From Candidatus Magasanikiibacteriota bacterium (GTDB lineage Bacteria; Patescibacteriota; Patescibacteriia; Magasanikbacterales; UBA922): a DNA stretch of 64,000 nt. Within the stretch, counting starts at the first letter, position 1. Each line of letters opens with the position of its first letter. The notes beneath the pieces were generated by a model that saw only the letters and a list, made by a program, of their open reading frames with translations, was not told the origin of the DNA and searched no databases. Positions 4,201-61,392 of the stretch are shown in pieces. Location of the stretch: contig DMXO01000002.1 of the NCBI GenBank assembly GCA_003482855.1, forward strand, positions 210,635 through 274,634, in the 5' to 3' direction. The position numbers and the translations under genes are program-made.

Positions 4201-4396
4201 CTATAACACAGAGTAATATCATTGGGGGTTCGGGGTGGCTACTGTTTGAGCGTCACTGCAAATAAGATGGTATATAATTCTTTGGTATAGCGAGTTTAGC
4301 CACCCCGACACTTTTTGTTACTTTTTGGTGACAAAAAGTAAGCAAGAGGGTGATCACATAAAATACCAATATCCTAATATCCAATATCTTAATATT

Positions 4397-8562: not shown

Positions 8563-8625
8563 CAAATATTAAGATATTAAGATATTAAGATATTGTGTAA
8601 CATAATATCTTAATATCACAATTTC
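8563..8625. repeat. TTAAGATA tandem repeat (x3) plus inverted copy AATATCTTAATAT
   Basis: atattaagatattaagatattaagatatt ... aatatcttaatat, directly upstream of radical SAM start. Confidence 0.6.
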
Positions 8626-10231: not shown

Positions 10232-10345
10232 TAAATTCACCTAACTGTCCAATTCCCAATTCACCTAATAAAATTCAAATGTATAAATTGAAAATTATAT
10301 TATTGGACATTTTATTAGGTAATTGGAAATTAGGTGAATTAGAAA
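10232..10345. repeat. imperfect inverted repeat (aattcacctaa...ttaggtgaatt arms) at left edge of high-GC island
   Basis: aattcacctaactgtccaattcccaattcacctaataaaat ... attttattaggtaattggaaattaggtgaatt. Confidence 0.5.
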
Positions 10346-10581
10346 TTTTTATAGTAACCCTCAACACCTTCATAAACTTTTATAAAAGTGTAGTTGGGTT
10401 GGGATTCGGCGCGCAGTCGAATCCCTTCCCTCCTTTCCGCCTCCCGAGGGAGACGATGCGCCTGGACAGTGCCGCCAGGCTCGGCGTGGTTCACTCCCCG
10501 TGATCAGCTCTGCGCGAGCCGCGGATCATCATGAACGTGAATGTTTTCGACGCGGCGGCGGAGATAGAGGGTCGAGACGAC

Positions 10582-12573
10582 CTAGTTCTCCGGGGCGCAG
10601 TACACGCCCTCGTCGTTCCAACCGGTGCAGCCCACGGGGCCGGCGGGGTCGGCCACGCACCAGGGCGCCGTGTAGCAGCAGGAGGTGGCCGCCGTCGGGT
10701 CCGTGGTCGGCGTACCGCCGATCCACATCTCCTTCACGGGCGAGGCCATGCACGCCGCGAACAGCGGGTAGGTCGGCGCGGGCGTCGGCGTGTACACGCA
10801 GGTCATGTTGACGCAGGTGTCGATCGTGGCGCCGTTGCCGTCGTCGCAGTTCGCGTCGATCAGGCACTGGACGCAGGTCGCGTCGCCGCCACCGAGGTCC
10901 TGGCAGACGCCGGTCGTGCAGAGCGGCCCGCTGCTGCAGACGCCGGCCGTGCAGGTGTCGGCCGTGCAGGCATCGCCGTCGTCGCACTCGCCGTCGGCGG
11001 TGCAGTCCGGCACGCAGGCCGGGTCCGCCACGCAGTCGGGGTCGAGGCAGTCGGCGAGGCCGTCGGCGTCGTTGTCGAACGTGTCGGAGCAGGCGGCCTC
11101 GGTGTCGCAGTAGCCCGGGGCGCACATGGTGCAGCCCTGGACGTCGCGGCACTCCATGACGGCTCCGAGCGGACCGCACTCCTCCTCGTCAGCCCACAGG
11201 CCGACCTGCGTGCCCGGGATGAGCGTGCAGATGCGGTGCGTGAGGATGGCGGGGCCGGTGGTCTGCTCGACCTCGACGCAGAGCCCCTTGACCGTGACGC
11301 CGGCCTCGATCTCCTGCGCGGTGAACGTGCAGAAGTCGAGCGTGCAGATCGCGTCCGCGGTGCACACGCCGTTGCCGTCGGGCAGCTCGCAGAGCGAGCC
11401 CGTGGCCATCGGGTCGTGGCTGACGGCGCCGTTGGCCGAGTCGCACGCGTCGAGCGTGCAGGGGTTATCGTCGTCGGTGTCGACGTCGATGCCGACGCAG
11501 AGGCCGGCGACCGAGCAGGCGTCCTGCAGGGTGCAGGCGTCGCCGTCGTCGCAGATCAGGCTCGGCTGCGGAACGTGGGTGACGACACCCTCGATGTCGC
11601 ACGCGTCGAGCGTGCAGTCGTTGAGGTCGTCGATGTCCGACTTGGGCTCCGCCTCGCAGAGGCCGACGATGCACATGTCGTTCATGGTGCAGGCGTCGCC
11701 GTCGTCGCAGGCGAGCCCGTCCATGGCCTCGGTGTCGAAGTCGCAGCCCGTGACCGAGTCGCACGTGTCGACCGTGCAGTCGTTCTCGTCGTCGCAGACG
11801 AGCGACTCGGACTCGCACCAGCCCGTGACGAGGTTGCACGTGTTCACCGTGCAGGCGTCCGCGTCGGTGCAGTCCGTGTTCGACTCGCACTCGACGAGCT
11901 CGCGGCAGTAGCCGACCGCGGCCGGGGTGAGCGCCTCGGGGTTGATGGCGCACTCCTGCTCGTGCCCGTTGGGGCTCACGGGACAGGGGTCCACGATCGG
12001 GACGAGGTGGCAGTTGCCATCCACGTCCAGGTGGGTCACCACGGAGAAGCGGCCGACGTACACCTCGAGCTCGCCCGTGGCCGGGTTGTACCAGAGGTCG
12101 CCGTCCTCGGCCGTGTCGCACGACACGAGGTAGCGGGGGCCGATCGGGCCGTAGCAGTCGGAGCCCGTGATGCCCGGCTGGAACGTGAGCGCCGACCGCG
12201 TGGTCATGGTGCCGTCGCCGTTGTCGATGATGCCGAACTCCTCGTTGAGGTTGATCTGCGCCGTGTTGTAGCGCTCCACGATCGCCTCGTACGAGAGGGG
12301 CTCGACGTTGACGCTGGCGGGGTAGGCCGAGCAGCCCGTGTTGCGGTCGACCATCGGGTTCTCCGAGATCGGGCCGCAGTAGGTGTAGCCCTGGGGCGAC
12401 ACCGCGAACACGTGCTGCACGCTGACCTCGTCGGTCACGCTGGCGTACCACCAGGTCGAGTCGACCTGGAGCTGGTTGGTGGGCGCCTCCTTGTCGCCCA
12501 GGTTCGGGTTGTTGGCCTCGCAGCCGATGATGCCGATGACGCCGAGCACGAACAGAACCGTCGCCTTGCGCAT
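10582..12573 (-). CDS. lipoprotein with Cys/Asp-rich tandem repeats (Myxococcus-type cysteine-rich-repeat-like)
   Basis: Lipoprotein signal MRKATVLFVLGVIGIIGC. Repeated units CDDGDACTxxDxC and DxNDCTxDxCD. SD GGGAGG 7 nt upstream of ATG. Confidence 0.65.
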   Translation of the reverse strand: MRKATVLFVLGVIGIIGCEANNPNLGDKEAPTNQLQVDSTWWYASVTDEVSVQHVFAVSPQGYTYCGPISENPMVDRNTGCSAYPASVNVEPLSYEAIVERYNTAQINLNEEFGIIDNGDGTMTTRSALTFQPGITGSDCYGPIGPRYLVSCDTAEDGDLWYNPATGELEVYVGRFSVVTHLDVDGNCHLVPIVDPCPVSPNGHEQECAINPEALTPAAVGYCRELVECESNTDCTDADACTVNTCNLVTGWCESESLVCDDENDCTVDTCDSVTGCDFDTEAMDGLACDDGDACTMNDMCIVGLCEAEPKSDIDDLNDCTLDACDIEGVVTHVPQPSLICDDGDACTLQDACSVAGLCVGIDVDTDDDNPCTLDACDSANGAVSHDPMATGSLCELPDGNGVCTADAICTLDFCTFTAQEIEAGVTVKGLCVEVEQTTGPAILTHRICTLIPGTQVGLWADEEECGPLGAVMECRDVQGCTMCAPGYCDTEAACSDTFDNDADGLADCLDPDCVADPACVPDCTADGECDDGDACTADTCTAGVCSSGPLCTTGVCQDLGGGDATCVQCLIDANCDDGNGATIDTCVNMTCVYTPTPAPTYPLFAACMASPVKEMWIGGTPTTDPTAATSCCYTAPWCVADPAGPVGCTGWNDEGVYCAPEN

Positions 12574-12872
12574 GGGTTAACCTCCCGTGTTGCGCCGTTG
12601 CACGACCTCTCCCTCCCCAGACCTGGGGACAATGCCCTGGCTAAGGGGCGGGAGATAGAAAGCACTAGCCACTGACCTGAACAACTTTGTTATTCACTCA
12701 GTGGCTAGCACTTTCAAAAATACACTATATTGGATTGAAAGGTACTTCACCACCAAACTTATACAGTTTGATGATGACGATGCCTTTCCCCTCGTCCCCA
12801 TTCAGACACGCGCTTGGTAGCGACGCGTCCGAACAGCGGGGACGAGGGAAGGCGGAAGGACATGCGGCTCGA

Positions 12873-14147
12873 TCAGCCGCCGATGACGTCGGACCAGCCG
12901 AACCAGGTGGTGCCGCCGTTCTGCGAGCAGCCGTGGGCCGGATCGGCCTGGCACTCCGTGGCACCCACCGAGGTGGAGCCGCAGGTGACGACCTCGACCC
13001 ACATGCCGCTGGTGCAGCGGGCGAGCGAGGTGTTGCCCGTGGCCACGAAGTCGTAGCAGACCACGGCACCCTCGGTGCACTCGCTGGCCGTGACGGCCGG
13101 GGCGCAGTGCGCGAGGAGGCCCTGGTAGGGCTGGCACACGGTGCCCTCACCGCAGGGGTCGATCTCGACGCACGTGCCGTTGACCATGGTGGCCACGGTG
13201 CAGACGTTGCCGTCGGACTCGACGCACTGCGGGTCGCCCTCGATCACCTCGATGTGGTGGCAGCCGGAGGCCGCGTCGCACGTGTCGAAGGTGTCGTCGT
13301 TGGCGTCGTCGCAGGAGAGCGACGTGTTGGCGCAGTGGCCGTTGACCAGGCACTGGTCGAGCGTGCAGGCGTTGCTGTCGAAGCAGTCCTGGTTGCTCGT
13401 GCAGAGCTGGCGGCAGATGCCGACGTCGCACCACTGCGACTCGGGGTCACAGAGAGGCGCGAACTCGCACTCCTCGGTCTCCCAGTTGCACGTCGGGACG
13501 ACGCACGGGTCGGCCGACTCGCACGAGTTCAGGCACGCCGGCGGGAGCGACATGTGGCCGCAGTGGCCGGTGGCCTCGTCGCAGGAGTCCTGCGTGTTCG
13601 ACATGCCGTCGTCGCAGAACCCCACGTACACGGGGTTCCCGTTGACGTCGCAGAGGTCGGTCGTGCAGAGGCTGCCGTCGTTGGCGTCGCACACGCCGAC
13701 GTACTCCTCGACGCACACGCGCTCGCCGTTGTCGTCCGCCTTGCAGACGGACCGATAGAGCGGGTCGCTCGGGATGGGGCACGTGTAGGCGTAGCGCTTG
13801 ACGTTCCCCGTCATGTTGTCGCACACGTCGACCGTGCAGGGGTTGCCGTCATCGACGTTGGAGCACTCATGCTCCTTGATGACGCAGGCACCGAGCCAGC
13901 ACGCGAACGGCTCACCGCACTGCACCTCGTCGGTCGCGATGCACTCGCCGTTGGCGCACGTGCGGGTCTCGCAGGTGTCGGGATTCTCGGCGTAGCAGTC
14001 GGCCGACGTGAAGCACGTCAGCCCGACGTCGTCGGGGGTCGGCTCGCGCTGGACGGGCGGGGTCGTGGAGTTGTCGTCCTGGTTGAGGTACGGGTTGCCG
14101 TTGCAGGCCGCGAGGAACGCGAACACGAACAGGATGCTCTTCTTCAT
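12873..14147 (-). CDS. lipoprotein with Cys-rich repeats (paralogous architecture to 10582..12573)
   Basis: Lipobox MKKSILFVFAFLAAC. NPCTVDVCD / SLCTTDLCD / NACTLDQC repeats. SD GGAGAG upstream. Confidence 0.65.
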   Translation of the reverse strand: MKKSILFVFAFLAACNGNPYLNQDDNSTTPPVQREPTPDDVGLTCFTSADCYAENPDTCETRTCANGECIATDEVQCGEPFACWLGACVIKEHECSNVDDGNPCTVDVCDNMTGNVKRYAYTCPIPSDPLYRSVCKADDNGERVCVEEYVGVCDANDGSLCTTDLCDVNGNPVYVGFCDDGMSNTQDSCDEATGHCGHMSLPPACLNSCESADPCVVPTCNWETEECEFAPLCDPESQWCDVGICRQLCTSNQDCFDSNACTLDQCLVNGHCANTSLSCDDANDDTFDTCDAASGCHHIEVIEGDPQCVESDGNVCTVATMVNGTCVEIDPCGEGTVCQPYQGLLAHCAPAVTASECTEGAVVCYDFVATGNTSLARCTSGMWVEVVTCGSTSVGATECQADPAHGCSQNGGTTWFGWSDVIGG

Positions 14148-14224
14148 CTGGATCTCTCCGTCGGTTGGCCCGCACTCCGTGAGTCGGGCTCTGGTTCTTG
14201 TTCTCGATCTTCTTGCTTGAAGGA

Positions 14225-14833
14225 TCAGTACGCCCAGTACACTCCGGCGCCGGCTTCCTGGCGGTAGAGCGGGTCATCCCCGCCACCGAACCAGCCCGGC
14301 CCGAAAGTGTAGCGCGCCTCGAACCCGAAGTGTTCCCACGGTTGCCATCGCATGGCTACCGAGGCCACGAACGAGTTCACGACGTCGCTGTTCTGGGTCG
14401 TCGACATGCGGTCGTAGCCGATACCGGCGAGGCACTGGATCTTGTCCAGATGCGTCCGGTACGCGGCCTGGATCAGGCCCGTCATGAAGAGGGTGTCGAC
14501 GCCCTGCTCCATACCACCGGTCTCCACGCGCATGTAGCCGAAGTTCCCGAGGAACTCGAGACCGAAGTGCTGGGTCAGGGAGACCCAGCCCATGATCTGG
14601 AGCTTCGGGACTCCGGTCTGCACCTCGCCCGCGCCGCTGAAGTAACCCAGGAGGGCCACCTTGAAGCGGAACGAGTCGAGCTCGTGCGACATGGCGACCG
14701 ACTCGATCGCCGCGCGCGGGATGCGCGGGTCCGGGACCTGATACACGGTCGGCGCGGGCTGGGCCCGCACCGAGTTGGGGTTGAGGAACAGGACGAGGAA
14801 CAGGACGCTCAGGAACAGGTTCGCGCAACGCAT
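14225..14833 (-). CDS. outer-membrane beta-barrel protein (OmpA-like/OMP_b-brl), start at MRCANLFLSV...
   Basis: Signal peptide MRCANLFLSVLFLVLFLNPNSVRAQ, alternating hydrophobic beta-strand pattern, C-terminal aromatic (…GVYWAY), SD GGAGGGAG upstream. Confidence 0.55.
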   Translation of the reverse strand: MRCANLFLSVLFLVLFLNPNSVRAQPAPTVYQVPDPRIPRAAIESVAMSHELDSFRFKVALLGYFSGAGEVQTGVPKLQIMGWVSLTQHFGLEFLGNFGYMRVETGGMEQGVDTLFMTGLIQAAYRTHLDKIQCLAGIGYDRMSTTQNSDVVNSFVASVAMRWQPWEHFGFEARYTFGPGWFGGGDDPLYRQEAGAGVYWAY

Positions 14834-15059
14834 CGGACTCCCTCCGTCTGGGTGTGTTCGCAACTCGCGACTCTCGAAACGAAAGACTATAAATGTCCTT
14901 CCGCACTCCGACCCACAAGGCCGGAGATTGGAAATGTGTCTCCTAAGCACTCATACATATACAAAAAATACATTGTATATGCATACGTACTTAGGAAAAC
15001 ATTTGTAAAGAACAAAGGAATTCTTACCCTGTACCTTTATGGTACTAGGGTTATTCCCA

Positions 15060-15125
15060 TTTTCTGACAACATCTGATACAGATATTGTCACAAAGCGGG
15101 TGGGGTGGGGTATCGTCGTAAACAG
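15060..15125 (-). terminator. GC-rich hairpin (gcgggtggggtat/ataccccacccgc) downstream of 15201..16691 gene
   Basis: 13-bp stem, about 25-nt loop, followed on minus strand by TTTGTG; sits in AT-rich spacer inside island. Confidence 0.4.
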
Positions 15126-15200
15126 TCTCAAACTCATACCCCACCCGCAGATGTCCGTGGATCCTCCCGGTTCCTCGGACGTCGTGTCAAAATGCCCTGG

Positions 15201-16691
15201 TCACGGGCAGGTGGCGAGCACCCAGTTGCGGGCGTCGGCGCAGCGGCGGGGGTCGCCGTTGACCTGGCACACCATCTGGGTGTACTCGCTCTTGCCGCAC
15301 ACGATCGTGGCGGCGCCGGTCACGTCGCCCGCGAAGCACTCGACCGCCTTCGAGTCCTTCTCGATGTAGGTGCCCGAGCAGGTGCCCGAAGCGGTCGGGG
15401 CGGCGGCGCCACCAGTGGGGGCGGTCGGGGCGACGGGGGCGGTCTCGTGCACGATGCGGGTCGTGTGGCTGGTGCGGGTCACCGTGTTGTGCACGTTGAT
15501 CTCGCCCTCGGCCGTCACGTCGCCCGCCTTGACCTCACCGGCGCGCACGATGCCCGCCTTGACCTCACCGGCCTCGACCGTCTCGATCGTGACCGGGAAG
15601 GTGCGGGGCGCGGCCTCGGCGGCGAGGCGGGCGGCCTCGGCGGCGGCGGCGACCTTCTGGGAGAAAGCCGCGTCGTCACGGGCCGACTTCACGTCGTCGT
15701 TGCTCGGGTTGAGGGCCCAGAGCAGGAAGAACGTGAGGAGCGCCGCGCTCCCGATGATGCCGGCCATGATCCACCACGGCCGGCTCGCCTTCTCCGCGCG
15801 CTTGGCGTCGTCGTCGCGGACGATCGACGGGTTCAGAGCGAGGAGCTCCTTCACCGTCAGGTCGCCGACGATGGCGTTGCCGCCCGAGCGCCCACCGTTG
15901 GTGATGTTGTCGCGGAGGGCGACGAACACGGTGCGCTCCTTGGGCTCGGCGGAGACGACGGGGGCGACGACGGTCTGCGAGGGGCAGAGCTCCTTCATGA
16001 GCCGGAGGCTCGTGAGGAGGTCGTCCTTGCCCGCGGTGCGCGCGCGCTCGAGGTCCTCGGCGCTGATGGCCGGGACCGTCGTCGTGGTGTGCGCGTCGTC
16101 GTGGCCGTGGCCGTGGTGGCCGCCGTCGTTGGTCTCGCGCTGGGCGAGGACGTCGGCGACGCGCCGCTCGATCCCCTTGCGGGTGAGCGTGGTCATCGGC
16201 TTGCCGGTGCCACCGATCAGCACGAGCTGCTCGGGGTCCGACTCGTCGATGCCGAGCACGTGACCGGTGTTGATCGCGTGCTGCTCGGCGCGGGGGTTGA
16301 GCTCCGCCTGCTGGACCTGCGGACCGCCGAAGACCACGTTGGTCGTGCGGTTGCTGGCCAGGAAGGCGAGGAGGTCGCTGAGGCCGGGCTCGCTGGTGCG
16401 GGCCGAGGCCGGGCGGCGGGGCTCGTCGGTGGACGGCTGGCGGCGGGGCTCGGGCTCGCGGCGGGTGTCGGTGCGGGCCGAGGCCGGGCGGCGGGTGTCG
16501 GCGTTGCTGCCGCGGGTCCGCTCGTCCTTGCGCTTCTTGTTGCACCGCTCCTCGGTGTGCCCGGGCTTGCCGCAGTACGCGCAGGTGACCTGCTCGCGCT
16601 CGGTGGCGGGGGCCGCGTCGTCGGTGTGGGCGGCGGCGGTGTCGGTGGTGATCTCGGGGGCCTGGGTGCTGGGGTCGGTCGCGGTCGTCAT
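15201..16691 (-). CDS. membrane protein with N-terminal CCHC zinc knuckle, Arg/Pro-rich linker, single TM and repeat-containing Cys-bearing C-terminal domain
   Basis: CAYCGKPGHTEERC = CX2CX4HX4C. RRPASART duplicated. TM WWIMAGIIGSAALLTFFLLWAL. AGEVKAG x3 tandem. SD GGGAGAGAG upstream. Confidence 0.55.
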   Translation of the reverse strand: MTTATDPSTQAPEITTDTAAAHTDDAAPATEREQVTCAYCGKPGHTEERCNKKRKDERTRGSNADTRRPASARTDTRREPEPRRQPSTDEPRRPASARTSEPGLSDLLAFLASNRTTNVVFGGPQVQQAELNPRAEQHAINTGHVLGIDESDPEQLVLIGGTGKPMTTLTRKGIERRVADVLAQRETNDGGHHGHGHDDAHTTTTVPAISAEDLERARTAGKDDLLTSLRLMKELCPSQTVVAPVVSAEPKERTVFVALRDNITNGGRSGGNAIVGDLTVKELLALNPSIVRDDDAKRAEKASRPWWIMAGIIGSAALLTFFLLWALNPSNDDVKSARDDAAFSQKVAAAAEAARLAAEAAPRTFPVTIETVEAGEVKAGIVRAGEVKAGDVTAEGEINVHNTVTRTSHTTRIVHETAPVAPTAPTGGAAAPTASGTCSGTYIEKDSKAVECFAGDVTGAATIVCGKSEYTQMVCQVNGDPRRCADARNWVLATCP

Positions 16692-17063
16692 GGTACTCTC
16701 TCCCTAGTCCTGCCCCTGGTGGGGGCGCAGTGAAAGCGCGCCCCACGTTGGGGCTTTGGTAACCTACCGTAGGCCTCGCGACACACGTCGCGTGACCATA
16801 TCCGGATACTGTATATGATCATAGAGATCATAGCCTGTACCCGGATATGGTATTTTATTTTTTTGTAGCTATTTTGACACGAATTCTTGTAAAGAGCGAC
16901 ACTCACCCTATTTTAGGATGAACAGAAGATTATATCATATATTGTGTAGTTTGTCAAGAGATAAAGGCTCTATATTTTCCCTCGGGAGAACAGATATTTT
17001 TTGCTTAATATAGAGAAAAAAATGAAAAACAAAAAAGGCTTTATTGAGCCAATTTTGCTATCA

Positions 17064-17145
17064 CTCGAACACTTGAACACCTAAGCACTGGAGCACCAGG
17101 TCACTGAAGCATTTAAGCACTAGGACATTTAATTACTTAAACACC
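17064..17145. repeat. array of degenerate TAAGCAC/GAGCACC/TGAACACC ~9-bp units (intergenic motif family, copy A)
   Basis: cgaacacttgaacacctaagcactggagcaccaggtcactgaagcatttaagcactaggaca... Confidence 0.55.
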
Positions 17146-17202
17146 TATCATAATATGCTTCGGACTACAAAAACCATACAAATTATTTTTTTCTTCTGCA
17201 CT

Positions 17203-17265
17203 GCAACTCACCCCCGTCCCCTCTCTTAGTAAGAGAGGGGTGCCCCGAGTACTCGGGGTGGGGTG
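17203..17265. repeat. nested palindromic GC hairpins (aactcacccc…ggggtgagtt enclosing cccctctctt/aagagagggg and ccccgagtactcgggg)
   Basis: Direct reading; perfect 16-bp palindrome ccccgagtactcgggg inside larger inverted repeat. Confidence 0.5.
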
Positions 17266-17284
17266 AGTTACATAAAAAAAATAT

Positions 17285-17322
17285 AACAAAAAGCTCCCCG
17301 ATGATGAGAGCTTTTTTGTACT
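17285..17322 (-). terminator. rho-independent terminator of giant ORF
   Basis: Minus strand: aaaagctctcatcatcggggagctttttgtt immediately after stop. Confidence 0.5.
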
Positions 17323-17329
17323 AACCTGT

Positions 17330-20300
17330 TTATCTATTTCCACCACGTGGTCCACCACCCCGAGGACCGCCGCCTCCACCACCTTTTTTACGCCCGCCTT
17401 GTCCTTGTTGTCCTCTGGCATTATCAGGTCTATTGTCAGGACGCTGACCACGATCCTGTTGTCCAGATCTATTGTCACTACCTTGTTGACCCTGACGTCT
17501 ATCATTCCCTTTCTTTTCTCTTTGTCCCCTATCTCGATTACTTTCATCTGAGCCACCACTCCTATCATTGTTTCTATCTCTACCGCCATTGCGTCGATCT
17601 CTGCCATTTGGTCGTCCACTGTCTCTATTGTTTGATCTGTTTGCAGACCCTTCGCCAGCACCAAGACCGAGATCATCACGAACCTGTTCATCGAGCAACG
17701 AAGCTACATCTATAGACATACGCGTCTGCATATCACGCGCAATATCTCGAGCTTGTGTACGAATAGCATCTGTTGCTTTGCGTAATGATCTATCACCACT
17801 CTCTTGTCCTAATCTTCGCACCAGTTCAAGTGCGGCAAGTTGTTTAGTAGCTTGTTCAAAATCTACCTTGTTTGTCTCTCCACCACGCGCTACATCTGGC
17901 ATCTCAGTACTACCAAACAATAACTCACGCGCCTGATCTCCGTTCAAAGACATCTTACTTACATCAAAAGATAGAGACCCTTTATCTTTTTTCACCCCAA
18001 TAGATCCATACGAACCAAGATTGAAATACGTAGTATCTGGATTTGCTTCAGATGTATCTGAGCCGGTGCCTTCAGCACTACCTTGTGCATGTGCCGTGTC
18101 ATCATCCATTGCTTCTACATCATCTGTCTGCTCTGCTTCATCTTGTGTTTGTGCAGGTGGTTGTGTCTCTACTACAGGAGCAGGAGTAGTACCTGCATCC
18201 ACTCTCGACGTAGAAGTTGAAGTAGTATCTCCCTCTCCAGCGGTAGGAACTTGTTCTCCTTGTCTTGCGCCCTTACGTTCGTACGCAGGACGAGGAGCAT
18301 CCTTCATACCACGAGACACATCTTCGAGTACAGGTCGTTCTCGTGTGGCAAAATATAGAGCTCCTGCTGCGAGCGCACCTCCACCAGCCACAGCATTGAG
18401 CATGGCAAGTCTACCATATGAAACATCAAACGATCGTCCATCTTCCATACCAAGTCTGACACCCTTGCCATCTGGTGTAGGCTCTGCATCTGTAGCACCA
18501 TCTACATGTATATTTGCTTCTTCGCCAGTATTGGTATTACGTACGGGTATATCTGCGCCACTACCAGTCACACGTGGATCTGCCACTGGCTCTACACGCG
18601 GTTCACGCGCGCGAGCTGCTGCCAATTCTTCAAGACGTTGCTGCGCATCTTCAGCCTGTGCTATCTGTGCCAAAGCAAGAGATTTACGATCAAGATCTCC
18701 GGTAGTAGGAGCATACTCATCAGCATCTCCTGTAGTACGCATACCACTGGCAATAAATCTATCTGGACTGCCACCGGTGCTTGTCTCGTTCATACCCATA
18801 TAGACAATTGGTCTACCTGGTTCTGCACGAAGTGGTGTCCTGCCACCTGGTTGATTATCAAACAATTTTACATTATCTGCTAAATAATCATCTCTGTTGG
18901 CATCATGCTGAAGTGCAGAACCGAGGCGTCGGATGAGATCACCACTACGACCACCTGCTGGCTGGTCAATAACCTGCGCTTTGTATTCTGCAAGGAAATC
19001 TGCAAGCGCCTTGTCTGTATCCTGCGGTATACCATCGGGAAATAATTTACCCAAAGATACACGATTGAATCCTTGACTCTGCAAAAATCTCAGTGCCTCG
19101 TCTGTATGCCCTGTCTTCATCATTTCTCCGACCATAGTGAGATCACGTTCGCGTTCAAAATGTAAAATCCATTGTGGATCACGAAACTTTGCCTCGGGGA
19201 ATAATGTATCTTCGCTACCTGTACCATGATCTGTGGCAGACTCAAGTACTGATCGCATAGCATCGGCATTGCCAAGACTCGGGTACGCGGTAACCCACGC
19301 ATCCATTTCTTTTGCTGCCGCAGGTGATAAATGAAATTCTTTTATGATATCGAGACGATCTATATCCCAACGAGCTGACTCGGGCACTGGCGGTACTTCT
19401 ATTGTCTCTGCTCGCGGAGTGGGCTCTCCTGATGGTGGTGCATCTACATCTCTGCCTCCATGTGCACCCACATCTGGTGATGTGTCGTGTGCATGATCTG
19501 CTACTTGAGCGCCTGTACCCGCTGCTGTTCCTGTTTCTTCTGGGATTCTTATGCCTAATTTTTCAAATGCCCATGCTCCAATGTCTTTGCTAAAATAGCC
19601 AAGACCAGCACCAATTACGCCACCGACAACCATACCTTTGAGAGCTCCTGCATGGCGTTTGATGAAGCCACCCTTATCTTTTAATTTATCAATAGTCTGT
19701 TGGCGTTCTGATTTGAGCAAGCTCACATCTGTATCAAGCTCTGCTAAAAGTGCTTCTGCTCCTGCATGTCTCAGGCGTTTGTCGTATGTCTCATATTCAA
19801 TACTGCGCAATACGTTACGTGCGCGCACTCGCAATAGTTCGCTATTGTTCAATAGACCAAGAGACATGGCAACACGAATATCTTTTGCGAGTTTCTGAAG
19901 ACCGGTATCACTTAGGCTTTCAGTCTTCTTGCTATCTATGCCAAGCGTAGACAATGCAAGCTCTGCTTCATCTATACGTCTCTCTACCTCTGTACGCATC
20001 TCTTCTTCACGTGCTCTAATATCTTTCATATTGCCCAGATGCGTTCCCAAATATGCACCCGCAAGTCCAAGCACTGCAGCGCGTACTTCTGGTGCAAAAC
20101 TTGATGCGACACCTATGGCTCCACCAGCAATAGCGCCCATTACTTTTTTGGCTAATTCATTTTGATCAAGTACCTCGCCATCGGCTTTGAATAATGATTG
20201 TACATCGCCACGCTTCAAAGCCATAGCTTTTTGTAATACGCGCATCATGCCAGGATTCTCACGAATGATATCTGCGACTGCGTCTACTGTCTGGCCACTA

Positions 20301-23300
20301 TACAACTCTGAAACCAAATGATCGAGACGAGCGTCCTGAGCTTCTTCGCGGGATATCTCTCCACGCGCAGCTCGAGTACGTGCATCGAGCGCTATTTCAC
20401 GACGCCCAGCTTGCAAAAGCAATATTGCCTGCGCGCGTATAGTATCATCATCCACTACTTCTGCACCAAGTCGAGCCTCATCGCGAGTAACTGCAGAAGA
20501 TGCATCTGTGCGACTCACACGATATGAAGCAGTGATGAGACCATCACTCATAAATACCGCAAGACGATCTATAAGTGTCTTGTCTCCACCTTGTGGAGTT
20601 CCATCAGCCCCTTTTGCCAGACCAAATCTTTGCATAAGTCTCTGACGAAATTCTGGCGTATTTCTAAATGTTTGTAATATTTCATCTTCTTTTTGTTTAA
20701 TTTTTTCTTCCACGTCTTGAGTACGATTGAGTGTGCGTTCACGTCCCGCTTTGGTGCTTCGCTCTGCTGCATACCAACCACCAATAGCTCCAGCTATGCC
20801 ACGCACTACCATCGCAGGAGCTTTGGCAACCGTGCCTGCAAGAGACGCGAGTCCGACTACAACAGCAGCAGGACCTACCGTGACTAAAGCATTTTTGGCT
20901 TTCTCCCACACTTTGGTCATGCCACCATGATAAAACTTTTTCATGTCTTGAAGTACATTGGTTTCTTCGCTCGCGACAAACAAACGGATACCATACATAG
21001 TCTCACGGTATCCTTGTTGCTTTTCCCAAAAACCAAGAAAATCTTCTGCATCTGTATACCCAGCACGACGAGCCTCTTCGCGGAGACGGCGTTCATCCAC
21101 ACCTTCTTGTCTAAATATATGTGTAATGTATTCTTCTACATCGCCTGCTGCAGTAGGATCTGTCATGAGATGCAATAATTTCGTGTATCTCTCACGGCCA
21201 ATTATTTCAATCAACACATGTGGGCGTATGTCTACTATGCCATGCTCAAACTCTTCGACAGTCCCCTCTGGCATATTGTTCAATCTGCGATGCAAATCTT
21301 CGGCTGCATTGTATTTGTCTGCAGCACTACTCCATACCGTACCGTCAGGAGTAACTTCAAACGTTTCTCCGTGGGATATATGCGCACGCATCACCTGTTG
21401 TCTATCTATGACTGAGTCAGTATAGAGCGGTTTGAGACCGCGCGCCTGCAGTTGATCCGGGCTTTCGATGCAAAAACGTTTGATACCAAACAGATGCTCA
21501 TCTGGCGATATAATGACGCACATACCTTGGTTACGCGCTTCTGCACATAGGGCGGATAACCTTCCAACGACTGTGGTGTCCAATGGTGCATCTGCGCTAC
21601 CAAAATTGCCCACGTCAAACCCAAACACGGAAGATAATACAGATGCACCTACACCTGGAGGCATACCATATTCACGCGCTAGGCGTGCCATCGTAGCTTC
21701 TGGCGTTTCAACAGCTGTCTCTGCCGAAGCACTATCTGACACTGCAGTACTTTCTCCTGTTGTCTCTTCAATATCAGGAAGTTCTATTCTCGGATGTGGT
21801 TTGCCTACTTCAGAAGATTTGGAAACCAAACCTCTCAAACGCTGGCCTATAGATTTTTTGCGTACAGCAAAATTGTATGGATCATCTGATACGAATTCAT
21901 ATCCTTTCGCAGGATAATACGTATTGTTACCATCTTCATCACGTGCCGCGTATACTCTTCCTGTATCCAATGCATATGAAAGATCAACAAAAGGAATATC
22001 TTCTTCTTCAGCACGTTTTATTGAATCTATTTGTTCTGAATTCAACAAATTTTGCATCATATCTTCAAACCACCAATCAGGATCTTCTGCTCCATCCAAT
22101 GATGATACATGGATCCTCGAAACATCCGGATGTTGTTCACGAGTATGTCTAAACTGCGCCAATAATCTGCGCATTTCTTCACGGCGCTCTGATGGTATAT
22201 ATGGCCTTCCATGCCAATCACGCCCTTCGTCATCCATGAGACTCACACACGCAAACATAGCATCAGCAAGACGTCCGAGTTCTTGCGCAGGATTCTCCTG
22301 CTCATGTGCTTCTACGTCAGCACCCTGCTCTGCTGGTGATTGTTCACTAGCCTGCACCACATCACGCACAGCAATTCTTCTATCGGACAAGACTACTACC
22401 TCTTTGCCTTGTGACCTCATTATATCTATATACTGCTGTACAACTTCGGCAGAAAACTCTGCAGGGATATCATTGATTTCAAATCCCAAAGTGCGCAATT
22501 CTTCTGGAGACATACTTTCCAAAGGGATATCTACATCGTAAACTCTTGAAGAATCCGCGGATGCAGAATCTGCAGAAGCGTCAGCATGACTTGCTTCATC
22601 CTCACGAGCTGTATCACCCTCTCCCTCACCATGCAGAGCTGGAAAATTATCACCGGATAATGCTTCATCACCTGTTCGTCGCGCAGGAAGATTATCCCTG
22701 CCATCAGGGATAGCTGGCAGATGATCTGACGGCAAAACATCCTCTGGAGCTTCGGCACTAGACTGTGTAGCTTTCACAGCAGAGGGACCAAATACTGATT
22801 CGGGATTACCACCAAGCACACGAACTAATTCGCGACTCGAGTCTTTGATAGTAGGATCAATATATAATGCAGTACCCCTCATTTCATGTTGTCCATTTGG
22901 TGATATATGTATTTCAGTAATATATCTATCATGTTCACCAATAGAACGATGTATAATACCTAGTAACCTCTGCGCATACTCAGGGCTCAACATGCCTTTT
23001 GGTTTGGTAAATTCACCCCAAGACTCCCTCAACCTGCCCCAATTTTTTGCAAATGTGTTTATTCTAAAACGAGGATCTATTTTCTGAAGTTCTTTTTCTG
23101 CAGGACCCAAAATATCCAACAATGCTTTTTCTACACCTACTGGTTCTTCGGGATTGGTAGATCGACCTGCGTTCGGGTCTGCCTGTTCTCCACCCGGAAC
23201 TGAAGCCTTTTCTTTTCTGCGTCTTTTTATTTTTTCTGATTCACCTTTTTTGGTTGCATCTGATGACTCAGTAATTTTTACTACTTCTATAGATAAATTA

Positions 23301-28116: not shown

Positions 28117-28593
28117 CTAATTGGCTATAAGTGATTGTATAAGTGATACAACAGAATCTCGCATCTCAGCAGGAGACTGTTGCGTCTGTGCGCGCAATCG
28201 CGTCACACTCAAAACTACATTGAGATGTTTCTCTTGCATATCTTTTGGCACACGCACAGCAAGCAATGTATCCTCTACTGATGCAAGGATATTATCAATT
28301 GATTGTGAACTCTGCGTAGTATCTGAGACAATACGCGATATGCTTTCTCTATACTGTGTAACAAGTTCTTCGGACGTTGCTTGGGTATTTTGATTATCCT
28401 CGGCTTGAATATCTTGGCCAATATCGACAGATGGTGCTTGACTATCCGGTGCCACGTCTCTTTGTCTATCATGAGAAAAGAGCATCGTCACCAATATACC
28501 CACTGAAATAATAATACCAAGAGCAACAGCACCAAATACAAAAAATAACAAAAATGAAGACTGTTTTTTGTGTATAAACATATAATAATGCAA
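28117..28593 (-). CDS. membrane-anchored hypothetical protein
   Basis: Single N-terminal TM (FLLFFVFGAVALGIIISVGILV) then polar domain. Confidence 0.4.
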   Translation of the reverse strand: MHYYMFIHKKQSSFLLFFVFGAVALGIIISVGILVTMLFSHDRQRDVAPDSQAPSVDIGQDIQAEDNQNTQATSEELVTQYRESISRIVSDTTQSSQSIDNILASVEDTLLAVRVPKDMQEKHLNVVLSVTRLRAQTQQSPAEMRDSVVSLIQSLIAN

Positions 28594-28664
28594 TTATGTC
28601 ATAATAATAAACTAAGTATACAATATTTGCCTAAACCTTGCAAAATAAGAAAAAAACGCTATAC

Positions 28665-28765
28665 TAAGAACGCCTTAGCACTACAGCACCTAAGCACCTG
28701 CCTGCGCAGGCAGGCTCAAGCACTTTTTCTAAGATAAACTTTTTTGGTGCAACGTGCTTAAGTGT
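28665..28765. repeat. TAAGCAC-family motif array (copy B) with embedded perfect 18-bp palindrome cctgcctgcgcaggcagg (28697-28714)
   Basis: ctaagaacgccttagcactacagcacctaagcacctgcctgcgcaggcaggctcaagcac ... gtgcttaagtg, in divergent promoter region between minus-strand array and smpB. Confidence 0.55.
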
Positions 28766-28777
28766 TTACATTAATAT

Positions 28778-29224
28778 ATGCCCTCATACGCAAAAAATAA
28801 AAAAGCACTTTTTGACTATGAACTCCTCGAGACACTCGAGGCTGGGTTAGTATTATCTGGACATGAAGTGAAGTCGGTGCGAAGTAAACATATACGACTT
28901 GCAGGAAGCTTTATAAGCATACACGACAATGCAGCATTTCTCACCAACGCACATATAGCTATGTATAGATATGCAAATGTGAAAAACTATGACCCTACAC
29001 AGCCAAGAAAATTGTTGCTTACCAAAAAACAAATCTGTTATTTAACAGGAAAAACTCATGAAAAAGGCTTGACAATTGTGCCTCTCTCTGTCTATACTAA
29101 GGGTCGTCTACTCAAAATGGAAATAGGTATCGTTCGAGGAAAAAAGAAATACGATAAGCGAAGAATTATAAAAGAACGAGAACAGAAAAGAGAAATAGGA
29201 AGAGCAATGAAAGAAATAAATTGA
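28778..29224 (+). CDS. smpB: SsrA-binding protein SmpB
   Basis: KALFDYELLETLEAGLVLSGHEVKS... canonical SmpB; adjacent to tmRNA. Confidence 0.9.
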   Translation: MPSYAKNKKALFDYELLETLEAGLVLSGHEVKSVRSKHIRLAGSFISIHDNAAFLTNAHIAMYRYANVKNYDPTQPRKLLLTKKQICYLTGKTHEKGLTIVPLSVYTKGRLLKMEIGIVRGKKKYDKRRIIKEREQKREIGRAMKEIN

Positions 29225-29404
29225 TGATGTAACTCATCCTCAACGAAAAGTGGTACCACGAGGTGGCGCCATTGATAAATATTCTGCAACACAAAATAAA
29301 GGTATACCGCGTAGTGGCGATATTTATAGTTAATTGAGTGCCGCGTAAAACCCTAACGGGTCACGCGGCGCTCAAGTGGCTCCATAAAATTCGCCACTTT
29401 ACGC

Positions 29405-29795
29405 GGGGATGACAGGGTTCGATAGGTGGACCTATGTTATCTACTATATGCATGTCGAGGTGGTATACGATCCTCGTAAAACCCGTATACAATTCTCAAG
29501 TGCAAACTTGGTAAGTCGAGTGAAAAACGCAGTAGCGCAAGCTTTCCGCGTCCCAACATTCGCATCTGTAGTGGCCTAATAGGCCTGCTACCATCATTCC
29601 CATGATACTCGGTAATGGATGAATGGTGTCAACCTATCGAGTGTAGGATATATGTGCTTTCTGTCGCATATACTCGAAATAAATACAGGATCAGTTGATT
29701 GCTATTTTGCTGATTTCTAAGCAATCAATAAAACACCAAACCAGCTATACATGTAGATTGTGGTGGTAACCCATCTAGACCCGGGTTCAATTCCC
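29405..29795 (+). ncRNA. ssrA: tmRNA (ssrA)
   Basis: 5' GGGGATGACAGGGTTCGATAGG. 3' T-arm ccggg-ttcaatt-cccgg then acceptor catctcc pairing with 5' ggggatg incl. G3.U wobble. Internal ORF ending in stop inside ggcctaataggcc hairpin. CCA not encoded (..tccaCGA). Confidence 0.7.
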
Positions 29796-29934
29796 GGCAT
29801 CTCCACGAAAAGCGGTGCAACCGCTTTGAGTGACGCGTGATGAGCGAAGCGAATTTTACGCGTCACAACCAATAACTGCTTTTTCAACGGCACCGCCTCG
29901 TGGCGATGCCATAGTAAAATTAGCAAGGAGGATT

Positions 29935-30198
29935 ATGTATTACGTTGTTTATTTTTTAGAATCTACAAAATATCCACAACGTCATTATATAGGTTACACG
30001 ACAAATTTAAAGAATAGGATTCAATACCACAATAAAGGATTAGTTACATCGACAAAAAATTTCAAACCATGGAAAATAATATATGCTGAGATGTATCTGA
30101 ATAAAAAAGATGCAATGGGAAGAGAGAAATTTTTGAAAAGTGGATCCGGATGGAAATTTCTAAAAAAACAATTGACACATTATTTTCAAAATAAATAA
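29935..30198 (+). CDS. GIY-YIG nuclease-family protein (small, about 87 aa)
   Basis: YYVVYFLES...YIGYTTNLKNRIQYHNKG GIY-YIG motif; perfect SD aaggagg 5 nt upstream of ATG 29935 (listed ORF start 29830 is upstream extension). Confidence 0.7.
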   Translation: MYYVVYFLESTKYPQRHYIGYTTNLKNRIQYHNKGLVTSTKNFKPWKIIYAEMYLNKKDAMGREKFLKSGSGWKFLKKQLTHYFQNK

Positions 30199-30203
30199 TA
30201 TCT

Positions 30204-30752
30204 ATGAGAATATCCCGTAAAAAACGACCAGACAAACCGCTCATTCCGCATTACAAAAAAAATGCGGAGATTGCTGCTGCAGAATTACTCTTGCTTGATG
30301 AGGATGGACAACGCATTGGCGTGATGACAAGACAAGAGGCGATTGATCTCGCATTCGAAAAAGAATTTGACCTCGTAGAAATCAATCCAAAATCTGATCC
30401 TCCTGTAGCAAAACTTGTCGACTTTTCTGAATTCAAATACCAACGAGAAAAAGAGGCCCGCAAACAAAAAGCTCACTCACGAACGAGCGACACCAAAGGA
30501 GTGCGTCTCTCCATACGTATCAGTGACCATGACAAAGAAACAAAACAAAAACAGGCTGAAAAATTCCTTGACCGCGGTGACAAGGTAAAAATAGAACTCA
30601 TGCTCAGAGGAAGAGAAAATGCTCGCCCAGATCTTGCTGAAGCACTAATACGCAATTTCATTGGTAATATACAAAAGACAGTCGAGGTACGAACAGAGCA
30701 AGATATAGTTAGACAAGGAAAAACAGTAACTGCCATTATCGTAAAAAAATAG
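30204..30752 (+). CDS. infC: translation initiation factor IF-3
   Basis: Canonical IF-3 N- and C-domain sequence; followed by rpmI-rplT. Confidence 0.9.
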   Translation: MRISRKKRPDKPLIPHYKKNAEIAAAELLLLDEDGQRIGVMTRQEAIDLAFEKEFDLVEINPKSDPPVAKLVDFSEFKYQREKEARKQKAHSRTSDTKGVRLSIRISDHDKETKQKQAEKFLDRGDKVKIELMLRGRENARPDLAEALIRNFIGNIQKTVEVRTEQDIVRQGKTVTAIIVKK

Positions 30753-30879
30753 ACACCCTCAAATATGACATTCCTCCCCTACTCGGGGAGGTTTTCTATA
30801 CACAAGGAAACACCTTGACGAACGAGCCTACATACGGTATACTCATCCCGCCCTAAGGTACACATAATTTGTTTATACT

Positions 30880-31089: not shown

Positions 31090-31108
31090 TTTTTGAATTT
31101 TAAACTGT

Positions 31109-31453: not shown

Positions 31454-31486
31454 AAATGATACAATACATAACGTAGATAAAATTAA

Positions 31487-37472: not shown

Positions 37473-39005
37473 ATGGGCAAAAAAAATGATACGATCAAAG
37501 CCGATTTTTTAGTAATAGGATCAGGCATTGCTGGCCTGAATTTTGCGTTGGAAGCAAGCAAATATGGCACTGTCGCGATTGTAACCAAAAAAGAACTCAT
37601 GGAAAGTAACTCAAATTATGCTCAAGGTGGCATTGCTGCAGTTTTGGATACAATGGACAGCTTTGAAAAACATATTGAAGATACTATGAAAGCTGGGTGC
37701 TACTTGAATGACAAAAAAGCTGTAGAAATAATGGTGAGAGAAGCTCCCAAACAAATACAAAAACTCATAGATATTGGTGTCGGATTTAGCAAAGAAAACA
37801 ATAAATTGTCTCTTACCAAAGAAGGCGGACATTCTATGCGGCGTATCGCGCATGTGCATGATACGACAGGTAAAGAAATTGAACGGGCGTTGATTCACCA
37901 AGTACGGCATAATGAAAACATCTCTATCTTTGAATCGTACGTAGCATTTAGACTACTAACACCCGAGCACAAAAGCACAAAAGCACAAAAGCACTGTGTC
38001 GGCGCTTTGGTTCTCAATACTGAAAAAAATGAAGTGACTACATTTATTGTCAAGGCAACGATACTCGCGACAGGCGGAACAGGACAAGTATACAAACGAA
38101 ATTCAAATCCAAAAATTGCAACAGGTGATGGCGTGGCACTTGCACATGAAGCAGGGGCAGAAATTTGTGACATGGAATTTATACAATTTCATCCCACAGC
38201 TCTTGCAAAAAAAGGCAAACCAGCACTGCTTATTTCTGAGACTGTACGTGGCGAGGGCGGTATCCTTGTTCACAAAGATGGCAAACGATTTATGCCAAAC
38301 TACCATAAACTCGCCGAGCTCGCACCACGTGATATTGTCTCGCGCGCGATGTTTGAGGAATTAAAAAAAGGTCCAGTTTACCTCGACATCCGACATAAGG
38401 GAAGTACCTATATAAAACAACGATTCCCCTATCTCTATAATGAACTCTGGTGGTACGGAGTAAAGATGGATAAAGATCTTATTCCTGTCGCACCAGCCGC
38501 ACACTTCACCTGCGGTGGAGTTCATACAAATCTAAATGGCGAAACAAATATTCCCGGACTTTTTGCGTTTGGTGAAGTCGCGCATACCGGCGTTCATGGA
38601 GCGAATCGGTTGGCATCGAATTCGCTCTTAGAGTGTATGGTATTTAGTAGTAGGGCAGTAAATTCAACTAAAAAATATATCAGAAAAATGCAAAATGCAA
38701 AATGCAAAATGCAAAAAATCCCTATAACCTATAACCTAAAACCTAAAACCTTGAATGAAATTAGAAAGATGACATCTTCGATTCAAAAACTTATGTGGAG
38801 CAATGTTGGTATCGTCCGTGAAGAAAAAAAGATGAAAAAAACATTAAAAATATTAGATAGATATGAAACAAATATTAAACAGGTACTAAAGACTGGAATA
38901 AACAGAGACATTCTTGAATTAAAAAATATCTGTAATGTTGCCAAACTTATTACACAGGCGGCGCTTGAAAGAAAAGAAAGCGTAGGAGCTCACTTTATAG
39001 TATGA
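37473..39005 (+). CDS. nadB: L-aspartate oxidase
   Basis: DFLVIGSGIAGL FAD motif, YAQGGIAA, RLASNSLLE; carries in-frame repeat insertions. Confidence 0.85.
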   Translation: MGKKNDTIKADFLVIGSGIAGLNFALEASKYGTVAIVTKKELMESNSNYAQGGIAAVLDTMDSFEKHIEDTMKAGCYLNDKKAVEIMVREAPKQIQKLIDIGVGFSKENNKLSLTKEGGHSMRRIAHVHDTTGKEIERALIHQVRHNENISIFESYVAFRLLTPEHKSTKAQKHCVGALVLNTEKNEVTTFIVKATILATGGTGQVYKRNSNPKIATGDGVALAHEAGAEICDMEFIQFHPTALAKKGKPALLISETVRGEGGILVHKDGKRFMPNYHKLAELAPRDIVSRAMFEELKKGPVYLDIRHKGSTYIKQRFPYLYNELWWYGVKMDKDLIPVAPAAHFTCGGVHTNLNGETNIPGLFAFGEVAHTGVHGANRLASNSLLECMVFSSRAVNSTKKYIRKMQNAKCKMQKIPITYNLKPKTLNEIRKMTSSIQKLMWSNVGIVREEKKMKKTLKILDRYETNIKQVLKTGINRDILELKNICNVAKLITQAALERKESVGAHFIV

Positions 39006-61235: not shown

Positions 61236-61297
61236 CCAAATTTAATTGATAAATAAGGATTTTTATTATATAATAACTACAGTTCTAAAGCAACTTT

Positions 61298-61385
61298 TAT
61301 GCCTTAGCACTGAAGCACAAAAACACTCCCATCAAAAGTGTTGTGTTAATATAATGTGCCCAAGTGCTTTAGTGCTCATGTGACA
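61298..61385. repeat. TAAGCAC-family motif array (copy C) in divergent PGM/Clp promoter region
   Basis: gccttagcactgaagcacaaaaacac ... aagtgctttagtgctcatgtgac; 12-mer gccttagcact identical to copy B. Confidence 0.55.
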
Positions 61386-61392
61386 CAAAATT

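Follow-up and report, generated by a model that had tools for sequence, protein, structure and literature searches.

Three clusters of a short AGCAC-type unit lie between genes in a groundwater Candidatus Magasanikbacteria genome (CPR/Patescibacteria), within a stretch of 64,000 nucleotides that we refer to as the window. They raise the question of what they are: the preliminary description of this DNA had proposed a candidate regulator-binding array or a genome-specific REP-like element. The portion of the genome that we examined amounts to 84 kb, and we compared it with loci from relatives. The window sequence is identical across many independent assemblies of the population (at least 10 consensus assemblies), with array A letter-identical in the independent assembly L056. 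The next ClpC relatives in the databases share 72% and 67% identity with the ClpC of the window.

On one side of array A is the terminator of a 2533-aa gene; on the other is a perfect consensus promoter, directed towards a 6.7-kb island with a GC content of 62–70%, in a genome of ~39% GC. A Y-shaped GC-rich hairpin (17205–17270) and a terminator-like hairpin separate the 2533-aa gene from the array, which begins 106 bp upstream of the −35 of the island promoter. Array B is flanked by a 158-aa gene and by smpB, whose start, the ATG at 28778, is confirmed by gene calls and Pfam, and the tmRNA gene follows 600 bp beyond. Array C is flanked by the phosphoglucomutase gene and by clpC, a ClpC-type gene with its ATG at 61393.

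Table. Coordinates of the repeat arrays, their parts and the nearby promoter-like and terminator-like sites in the window.
Feature	Position	Strand	Description
Array A	17059..17146	+	11 head-to-tail 8-bp units, single orientation, without inverted partner; units 1–6: TATCACTC GAACACTT GAACACCT AAGCACTG GAGCACCA GGTCACTG; units 7–11: AAGCATTT AAGCACTA GGACATTT AATTACTT AAACACCT
Array B, overall	28672–28769		Forward arm, palindrome, stray forward unit, inverted arm
Array B, forward arm	28672..28699	+	GCC TTAGCACT ACAGCACC TAAGCACC
Perfect 18-bp palindrome CCTGCCTGCGCAGGCAGG	28697..28714		Between the arms of B
Extra forward unit of B, CAAGCAC	28717..28723	+	Out of the 8-bp register, 26 bp past the preceding AGCAC
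Array B, inverted arm	28747..28769	−	+ strand reads GTGCAAC GTGCTTAA GTGTTTAC
Array C, overall	61301–61387		3 forward units, 27-bp spacer, 4 inverted units
Array C, forward arm	61301..61329	+	GCC TTAGCACT GAAGCACA AAAACACT
Array C, inverted arm	61356..61387	−	+ strand reads GTGCCCAA GTGCTTTA GTGCTCAT GTGACACA
Segment of ~72 nt extra in the clpC leader	61299..61370 (approximate, alignment columns 80–151)	+	Corresponds to array C
Fourth array, perfect AGCACAAA x3.6	37965..37994	+	In frame within nadB
GATATT family	689–726, 4362–4396, 8566–8617, and within nadC
Other recurring families			CCTAAAA; TAAGC-type 9-mers upstream of rplJ, nadC and htpX
clpC promoter-like site TTGATA-17-TATAAT	61246..61274	+	11/12 consensus match, conserved in relatives
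Phosphoglucomutase promoter-like site TTGCTT-17-TATAAT	61265..61293	−	Weaker; C begins ~8 bp upstream of −35
smpB promoter-like site TTGCAA-16-TATACT	28638..28665	+	From the promoter scan
Perfect consensus promoter TTGACA-17-(TG)TATAAT	16929..16957	−	Faces the GC-rich island genes
Terminator-like hairpin after the 2533-aa gene	17288..17316		T-runs on both strands

The three intergenic clusters were found where they had been described, and they go far beyond chance. Pairs of AGCAC on the same strand occurred 8 times at a distance of 8 and at no other distance up to 13, and we counted 5 runs of three or more RRCAC at period 8 but none when the period was 5–7 or 9–12. No such run appeared in any of 300 third-order Markov simulations. 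The 8-bp periodicity of the AGCAC arrays is far above chance, and the period is exactly 8 bp, not the ~9 bp first given. The single unit at 14944 that had been listed with the arrays is a chance occurrence, TAAGCAC being found 5 times on the + strand against ~4 expected from base composition (our own calculation). The former tally of three large copies plus this island unit had also missed a fourth array, the one in nadB.

The units of A, B and C share the form RRNCACYN and run head to tail in exact 8-bp register. In array A this register is held across 11 units despite ~29% divergence among them, and the CAC core is more conserved than the other positions (p ~0.03, our own chi-square estimate). 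In the forward arm of B, AGCAC starts at 28677, 28685 and 28693, and the fourth forward unit is out of register. Of the inverted units in this array, two are in register and the third is offset by 1, and the arm ends 8 nt 5′ of the smpB ATG. All four inverted units of C are in register, and they end 5 nt 5′ of the clpC ATG. Inverted units are thus present in both arrays, as had been reported, but the form gtgcttaag is found only in B, and C has gtgctttag in its place. The perfect palindrome in B was likewise as described; CCTGCCTGCGCAGGCAGG is predicted to fold into a 6-bp hairpin.

Arrays B and C both open with the word GCCTTAGCACT, at 28672 and 61301, its sole two occurrences in the window. 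The two arrays had been said to share a 12-mer; the common word is there, with 11 letters. A shared word of this length was reached in 3 of 300 shuffles. To judge from this common start and their like layout, B and C are a genuinely related palindromic pair. Outside the units and the 11-mer, B, C and a similar array from a second Magasanikbacterium (locus L118, described below) have no sequence in common, and their spacers are unrelated.

We also asked how the AGCAC arrays compare with the other short repeats of this genome. Tandem Repeats Finder reported dozens of arrays with 7–9-bp units. Arrays of period 7–9 numbered 29 in 77 kb of native sequence, against 0–3 in 20 Markov simulations, an enrichment of ~20-fold, and two other Magasanikbacteria loci carried 13–16 of them per 10 kb. 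Their density between genes was ~7 times that within coding DNA, and the autocorrelation of six-mers had its peak at 8–9 bp in the intergenic portion and at 7 bp in the coding portion. Several unit families were present, each found again at multiple loci, and many of the arrays with 7–9-bp units have an inverted partner. Perfect in-frame arrays were found within nadC, nadB, tsaD, radA and recG. The one in nadB encodes part of an 8-residue loop insert, and is probably a coincidental member of the AGCAC family. Literature searches did not turn up a description of such arrays in CPR.

Since the arrays were identical in every independent assembly, there is no visible instability, at least in consensus sequences. 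We observed no copy-number polymorphism among the consensus assemblies from many samples. Phase variation was rejected on the same grounds, with no array differences among at least 10 assemblies. One array, upstream of rplJ, was kept between this genome and locus L182, and its conservation across genomes indicates that not all arrays are neutral.

Orthologous sites were compared between relatives. At clpC, the promoter, the 20 nt at either end of the leader and the beginning of the coding sequence aligned with those of the nearest relatives, L001 and L017 (ClpC 67% identical), and a 72-nt segment corresponding to array C was missing from these otherwise alignable leaders. In this alignment array C stands as a 72-nt addition to an otherwise conserved leader. 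Among 23 relatives we found no conserved array at the orthologous clpC promoter. In six other species, whose ClpC proteins are 77–88% identical to one another, the clpC leader is either free of arrays or bears one with a single arm or with two, built from a different unit, AAAGCCT.

The slot upstream of recA behaved in the same manner. In L118 it holds AGCACCTA x9 and GTGCTTAA x5, placed after the stop codon of the preceding gene and before the recA promoter, with its end 3–9 bp 5′ of the −35. In locus L177, with a RecA that is 94% identical, the slot is filled by GATATT-type forward and inverted arrays, and in a third genome (L179) by a plain terminator. Downstream of recA, the orthologous arrays of two close relatives differ by whole units and modules. 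In NadB, four lineages have a near-perfect array at one and the same loop, each with its own unit (AGCACAAA, AAAGTAG, TCCCTAT and AAAAGTC), and the 8-residue insert is absent altogether from many relatives. This pattern of turnover fits repeats that arise, are homogenized and are replaced at permissive sites, and does not fit a conserved operator.

The L118 array came out of a scan of 241 million metagenome records for a pattern in which only three positions of each unit were left free. Because that search was targeted and its pattern so restricted, we gave the array little weight as a sign of a phylum-wide vocabulary of units, and rejected it as proof of one. Other AACAC arrays in the metagenome records were either generic repeats or came from non-CPR organisms, where they lay close to genes such as lpxB and gcvT.

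The presence of array C as a discrete 72-nt insertion could also be explained if the arrays were MITE- or REPIN-type mobile elements, non-autonomous and spread to new sites by a transposase whose gene lies in another part of the genome. Arrays B and C form imperfect palindromes ~85–100 bp long that open with a common 11-mer, and unit families recur both within and between genomes. However, what B, C and L118 share is limited to short units and the 11-mer, the number and register of the units differ among arrays, no target-site duplication was visible at C in the clpC leader alignment, and no transposase or RAYT gene was found in the 84 kb examined. We consider mobile elements of this kind very unlikely. 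REPs are single palindromes of 20–40 bp, conserved in sequence and accompanied by a RAYT transposase. The arrays described here resemble REP, BIME, REPIN and MITE sequences as genome-specific intergenic imperfect palindromes that are optional at each locus and often lie between genes or in leaders; unlike REPs, they conserve only an 8-bp unit in variable number, and no transposase was seen in the 84 kb. The earlier proposal of a genome-specific REP-like element comes close to the account that we favour: the arrays are one family of short repeats that are dispersed, lineage-specific, locus-optional and turning over between related genomes.

To place the arrays relative to transcription, we scanned for promoters. 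The site upstream of clpC puts array C at leader positions ~+20 to +106, and that upstream of smpB puts array B at leader positions ~+1 to +97. Because B and C lie downstream of good plus-strand sigma-70-like promoters, they are probably transcribed as the leaders of smpB and clpC. The palindromic TTGCAA of the smpB site doubles for a minus-strand site (28643 to 28615), a weaker promoter-like sequence 28 bp from array B. The arrays had been described as lying 5′ of minus-strand operons, which is correct by position, with the −35 at 8 bp from C, 28 bp from B and 106 bp from A. B and C are also downstream of good plus-strand promoters, and the link to minus-strand starts does not discriminate between the readings. 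The scan gave no convincing promoter feeding array A on either strand.

If B and C are transcribed, the units of the forward and inverted arms in the smpB and clpC leaders might pair with one another, giving a long, interrupted stem-loop adjacent to the start codon, a cis-acting RNA that would gate 30S binding or mRNA decay in an organism lacking Shine-Dalgarno sites, for example as a thermosensor of stress genes. The promoters 5′ of B and C are good ones and that of clpC is conserved in relatives, and Shine-Dalgarno sequences are absent from native gene starts. In predicted folds the arms do pair, over 13 bp in C and as nested helices in B, with z values of −2.1 for C and −3.4 for B against mononucleotide shuffles. 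The clpC leaders with AAAGCCT arrays are predicted to fold very strongly (z = −9.5 in L009 and −3.8 in L010). In addition, of the 12 intergenic arrays 9 reach into the 60-nt segment immediately 5′ of a start codon, a segment that makes up only 28% of intergenic bases.

When array C was compared with dinucleotide shuffles, however, there was no extra stability (z = −0.3), and in its predicted fold the final helix stops 16 nt short of the AUG, which it does not include. The non-transcribed strand folds better than the transcribed strand in B, C, L118, L177, L010 and L023. Array A, in which no hairpin-capable imperfect palindrome is predicted as it is for B and C, has no partner arm and no convincing promoter to feed it, and the arrays of L118 and L177 lie upstream of the promoter. 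The clpC leaders of 21 loci (20 relatives and the window) were mostly short and unstructured, with a median z of −0.6 and 3 loci below −2. A conserved structured clpC leader was rejected on the basis of that median, and a role as cis-acting RNA in the smpB and clpC leaders appears to us rather improbable.

Several narrower ideas about RNA were also set aside. Strand-specific G-U pairing as a sign of selection on RNA was rejected, the trend being the opposite one. A small RNA from array A, complementary to the units in the B and C leaders, was rejected for want of a convincing promoter on either strand, and mRNA-sense GCUUA as an alternative ribosome-binding site was rejected because it is not general among gene starts. 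Rfam returned no match to the arrays at the gathering threshold or at E≤1. The sub-threshold matches were only terminator-like, beside array A. Identity with tRNA or tmRNA was rejected, the arrays being unrelated to them.

We next considered known operators. The CIRCE consensus is TTAGCACTC-N9-GAGTGCTAA, and TTAGCAC is a CIRCE half-site. The arrays share with the HrcA operator this half-site word, a convergent orientation (TTAGCAC ... GTGCTAA) and an adjoining heat-shock gene, clpC, and TTAGCACT in B and C, TAGTGCT in C and TAGTGCTAA in L118 resemble CIRCE arms, so that they might be degenerate or expanded CIRCE operators bound by HrcA. There was, however, no match to the CIRCE consensus at up to 3 mismatches in the window, and no relaxed TTAGCAC-N13-GTGCTAA in any fetched locus. 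Instead of the 9-N9-9 inverted repeat, the half-sites here are multiplied and the arms stand 23–28 bp apart; relatives have other units at clpC, and no hrcA gene was visible in the 84 kb examined. We regard the CIRCE explanation as extremely improbable. The CtsR box RGTCAAA-NAN-RGTCAAA, a direct heptad repeat expected near clp genes, gave no match at up to 2 mismatches. DnaA-box-like 9-mers (TTATCCACA at up to 1 mismatch) numbered 22 against 20.7 expected, none of them within the arrays, and a DnaA-box cluster was rejected accordingly. The suggested comparison with known transcription factor motifs thus yielded no match to the arrays.

The main rival involves a small DNA-binding protein, modelled on ribbon-helix-helix (RHH) proteins such as ParG, omega or MetJ. 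A single dimer of it might occupy each 8-bp unit, and the protein would coat the array cooperatively, as on iterons, and repress or insulate the smpB, clpC, divergent minus-strand or island promoters; alternatively, the arrays might be centromere-like sites. Contiguous 8-bp units, both direct and inverted, are present in numbers of 11, about 7 and 7 at three dispersed promoter-proximal sites, and contiguous 7–8-bp direct or inverted units are, by analogy, exactly what RHH operators and centromeres look like. ParG of plasmid TP228 binds degenerate ACTC boxes spaced by 4 bp, giving an 8-bp period; the parH centromere has 12 boxes, mostly direct, and the OF operator has 8 mixed ones (PMC3130281). 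At three promoters, the protein omega of pSM19035 binds heptads of the form WATCACW, which number 10, 7 and 9, follow one another without spacing and take either orientation (PMC2441792). Both geometries match the present arrays. The likeness to ParG sites is one of geometry: a degenerate 4–5-bp core at an 8-bp period, 8–12 boxes over ~100 bp, a mixture of direct and inverted boxes and a place upstream of promoters. The likeness to omega sites lies in three dispersed promoter-proximal arrays of contiguous CAC-core units in either orientation, including convergent pairs.

The RHH reading also gains from the register and CAC core kept in the degenerate array A, from the L118 array stopping 3–9 bp short of the recA −35, from the conservation of the rplJ-upstream array across genomes and from the adjoining genes smpB, clpC and recA, which serve stress responses and quality control. 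The neighbourhood of smpB/tmRNA, clpC and, in L118, recA is suggestive of a stress regulon. Against these points, Pfam scans of the flanking and small ORFs in the window found no gene for an RHH or other small regulator adjoining any array. Orthologous clpC promoters lack arrays, the recA slot of a close relative carries another unit family, and like arrays, even one of the same AGCAC unit, occur in frame within genes. Given how many other unit families there are, a large number of proteins of this sort would be needed, and the nearest −35 is anywhere from 8 to 106 bp away. Unlike the ParG sites, the arrays are chromosomal, have no adjoining parF- or parG-like genes, are not conserved at orthologous sites and do not have AT-rich spacers; unlike the omega sites, they have a period of 8 bp instead of 7 bp, and the omega arrays are part of a plasmid module for copy control and partition that includes an RHH gene; no such module was found here. 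Iteron-type binding in general seems to us unlikely. A specific version, with a small RHH-like protein tying smpB/tmRNA, clpC and, in the second species, recA into one stress regulon of a type so far undescribed in CPR bacteria, is more doubtful still, and equally doubtful is its corollary that array copy number would tune occupancy. The absence of conservation at clpC in 23 relatives, the exchange of units at recA and the lack of a nearby regulator gene speak against the regulator-binding array originally suggested.

Elsewhere in the window, the only regulator-like match in these Pfam scans was an HTH_17 protein at 371–685.

The AGCAC arrays look more like repeats made by slippage, because they are one family among many short repeats that turn over fast in this bacterium and its relatives, and less like the binding sites of a conserved regulator. 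The account that we favour, which we believe about as strongly as we doubt it, is that they are products of slippage and template switching, similar to minisatellites, STRRs or REPs, with B and C a related palindromic pair located in leaders. We would give an even chance also to the broader statement that they constitute one unit family of the tandem and inverted repeats with 7–9-bp units that are typical of this lineage, and not the conserved operator of a regulon. The slippage mechanism itself is a proposal that we infer from sequence. Replication slippage would multiply an 8-bp unit head to tail, and intrastrand template switching would copy the unit in inverted form, giving the order of forward arm, 23–27-bp spacer and inverted arm that B and C display. 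Repeated expansion and contraction would keep young arrays uniform while the unit drifts between lineages, and arrays would survive only where the DNA tolerates them, in intergenic DNA, leaders and protein loops. Array A, in the spacer that separates a terminator from the island promoter, has a single arm and would be partly decayed. Transcribed B and C are predicted to be capable of forming interrupted stem-loops; if these influence translation or the stability of the mRNA, the influence would be incidental and not a conserved function.

The slippage account does not sit easily with every observation. The retention of register and CAC core in the degenerate array A hints at constraint, and the position of B and C beside genes of protein quality control (smpB/tmRNA and clpC), like that of the L118 array beside recA, also counts against it. 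The same is true of the identity of the arrays across assemblies and of the rplJ-upstream array kept between this genome and L182. Furthermore, in-frame arrays need three units to be gained together, so simple slippage by one unit is insufficient.

Similar repeats are known from other bacteria. The STRR sequences of heterocystous cyanobacteria and other bacterial minisatellites consist of head-to-tail 7–8-bp units in several families that are dispersed, mostly intergenic and lineage-specific, and they have been assigned no function. The AGCAC arrays are like them in their tandem arrangement in a fixed register, in the many families above chance and in the rapid turnover between relatives. They differ from STRRs in their CPR host, in the frequent combination of a forward and an inverted arm and in the in-frame arrays within housekeeping genes, and from the expectation for minisatellites in their lack of copy-number polymorphism among consensus assemblies. 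The Rickettsia palindromic elements (RPEs) are conserved palindromes of 100–150 bp that occur in frame in protein genes. As with RPEs, repeat DNA is tolerated here at surface loops of conserved protein genes; unlike RPEs, the inserts are gains of 21–24 bp of a 7–8-bp tandem unit that varies between lineages.

This result keeps the repeat family from being annotated as a regulon. Were the iteron reading true, the arrays would be the first iteron-type stress operator in the CPR radiation. Some small Magasanikbacteria genomes are peppered with tandem and inverted arrays of 7–9-bp units, which turn over at fixed positions and which the genes of housekeeping enzymes tolerate in frame. Understanding the process that forms them would bear on mutation and repair in CPR, the candidates being deficient repair, some feature of the replicase or an active mechanism, and also on how leaders and terminators evolve in genomes without Shine-Dalgarno sites.

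Perfect or near-perfect tandem arrays with 7-8-bp units lie in frame within several housekeeping genes, namely nadC, nadB and tsaD, together with radA and recG just outside the window. Of the 14 coding arrays, 10 fall within 36.5-41 kb. The array in nadB encodes an 8-residue loop insert, corresponding to three octamer units. In four lineages of Magasanikbacteria this one loop holds a young tandem array, and the unit differs from lineage to lineage (AGCACAAA, AAAGTAG, TCCCTAT and AAAAGTC). The NadB loop is a hotspot of array birth, or else of concerted evolution.

Many loci of this genome and of two further Magasanikbacteria (the recA-region loci L118 and L177) carry a second repeat family, with a GATATT/AATATC core and a period of about 8 bp. 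Its members frequently comprise a forward and an inverted arm, as in the copy immediately 5′ of the radical-SAM gene, which starts at 8560. We also observed a two-armed element of AACAC type in a relative (L184), where it sits between two convergent genes, in the position of a terminator.

Coordinates of the repeat arrays, structures and other features
Feature	Locus	Position	Description
In-frame tandem arrays	window	36793-40877	7-8-bp units
In-frame tandem arrays	L052 (extension beyond window)	18084-20850	7-8-bp units
NadB-loop array	window	37965-37994	
NadB-loop array	L183 (relative)	866-890	
NadB-loop array	L182 (relative)	10522-10546	
NadB-loop array	L184	1308-1336	
GATATT/AATATC arrays	window	689-726, 4362-4396, 8566-8617, 37264-37286	
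GATATT/AATATC arrays	L177	1674-1770, 2496-2556	
GATATT/AATATC array	L118	1623-1655	
Two-armed element	L184	6042-6057, 6150-6165	AAAAACAC x2 and GTGTTTTT x2, facing each other
TCTAAGYNN array	window	32659-32698	9-bp period, x4-5
TCTAAGYNN array	L182	4760-4803	9-bp period, x4-5
GC-rich island	window	10300-17000	62-70% GC vs ~39% for genome
Island promoter	window	16929-16957	minus strand, perfect consensus, facing island
Y-shaped GC-rich structure	window	17205-17270	outer stem AACTCACCCC/GGGGTGAGTT around two hairpins
Terminator-like hairpin	window	17288-17316	T-runs on both strands; adjoins Y-shaped structure
tmRNA	window	29405-29808	unusual tag AVAQAFRVPTFASVVA encoded

The GC-rich island looks as if it was gained horizontally from a donor of high GC content. 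Its genes code for Cys-rich secreted or lipoprotein-like proteins, for which matches to the Dicty_CTDC repeat were weak, and the intergenic DNA of the island is AT-rich. Both junctions are spanned by independent assemblies, the left by L055 and the right by L056. Island genes retain a Shine-Dalgarno-like GGAG, whereas no Shine-Dalgarno sequence was found upstream of the start codons of the window's native genes, many of which are preceded by TACT or TATT.

A palindromic -35 hexamer is seemingly common to both promoters of divergent pairs, reading TTGCAA between smpB and the gene for a 158-aa protein (28638-28643) and TTGTCAA at the island promoter (16951-16957). The Y-shaped structure folds very stably (z = -4 to -5), and a look-alike is found 5′ of clpC in a relative (L001, about 2800-2860).

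Only two differences were found among the assemblies, both in population variant L049 when aligned with 28415-33235 of the window. One is a single base at 28768, in the region of the AGCAC array of the smpB leader; the other is a 15-nt indel whose apparent effect is the loss of 5 residues from L7/L12, with rplL called at 128 rather than 133 aa.

The stretch separating the rplJ start codon from the L10 leader RNA (Rfam RF00557, 32714-32885) holds the TCTAAGYNN array, which is kept in relative L182, whose NadB is only 75% identical. In contrast to most arrays, the one near rplJ may be functional.
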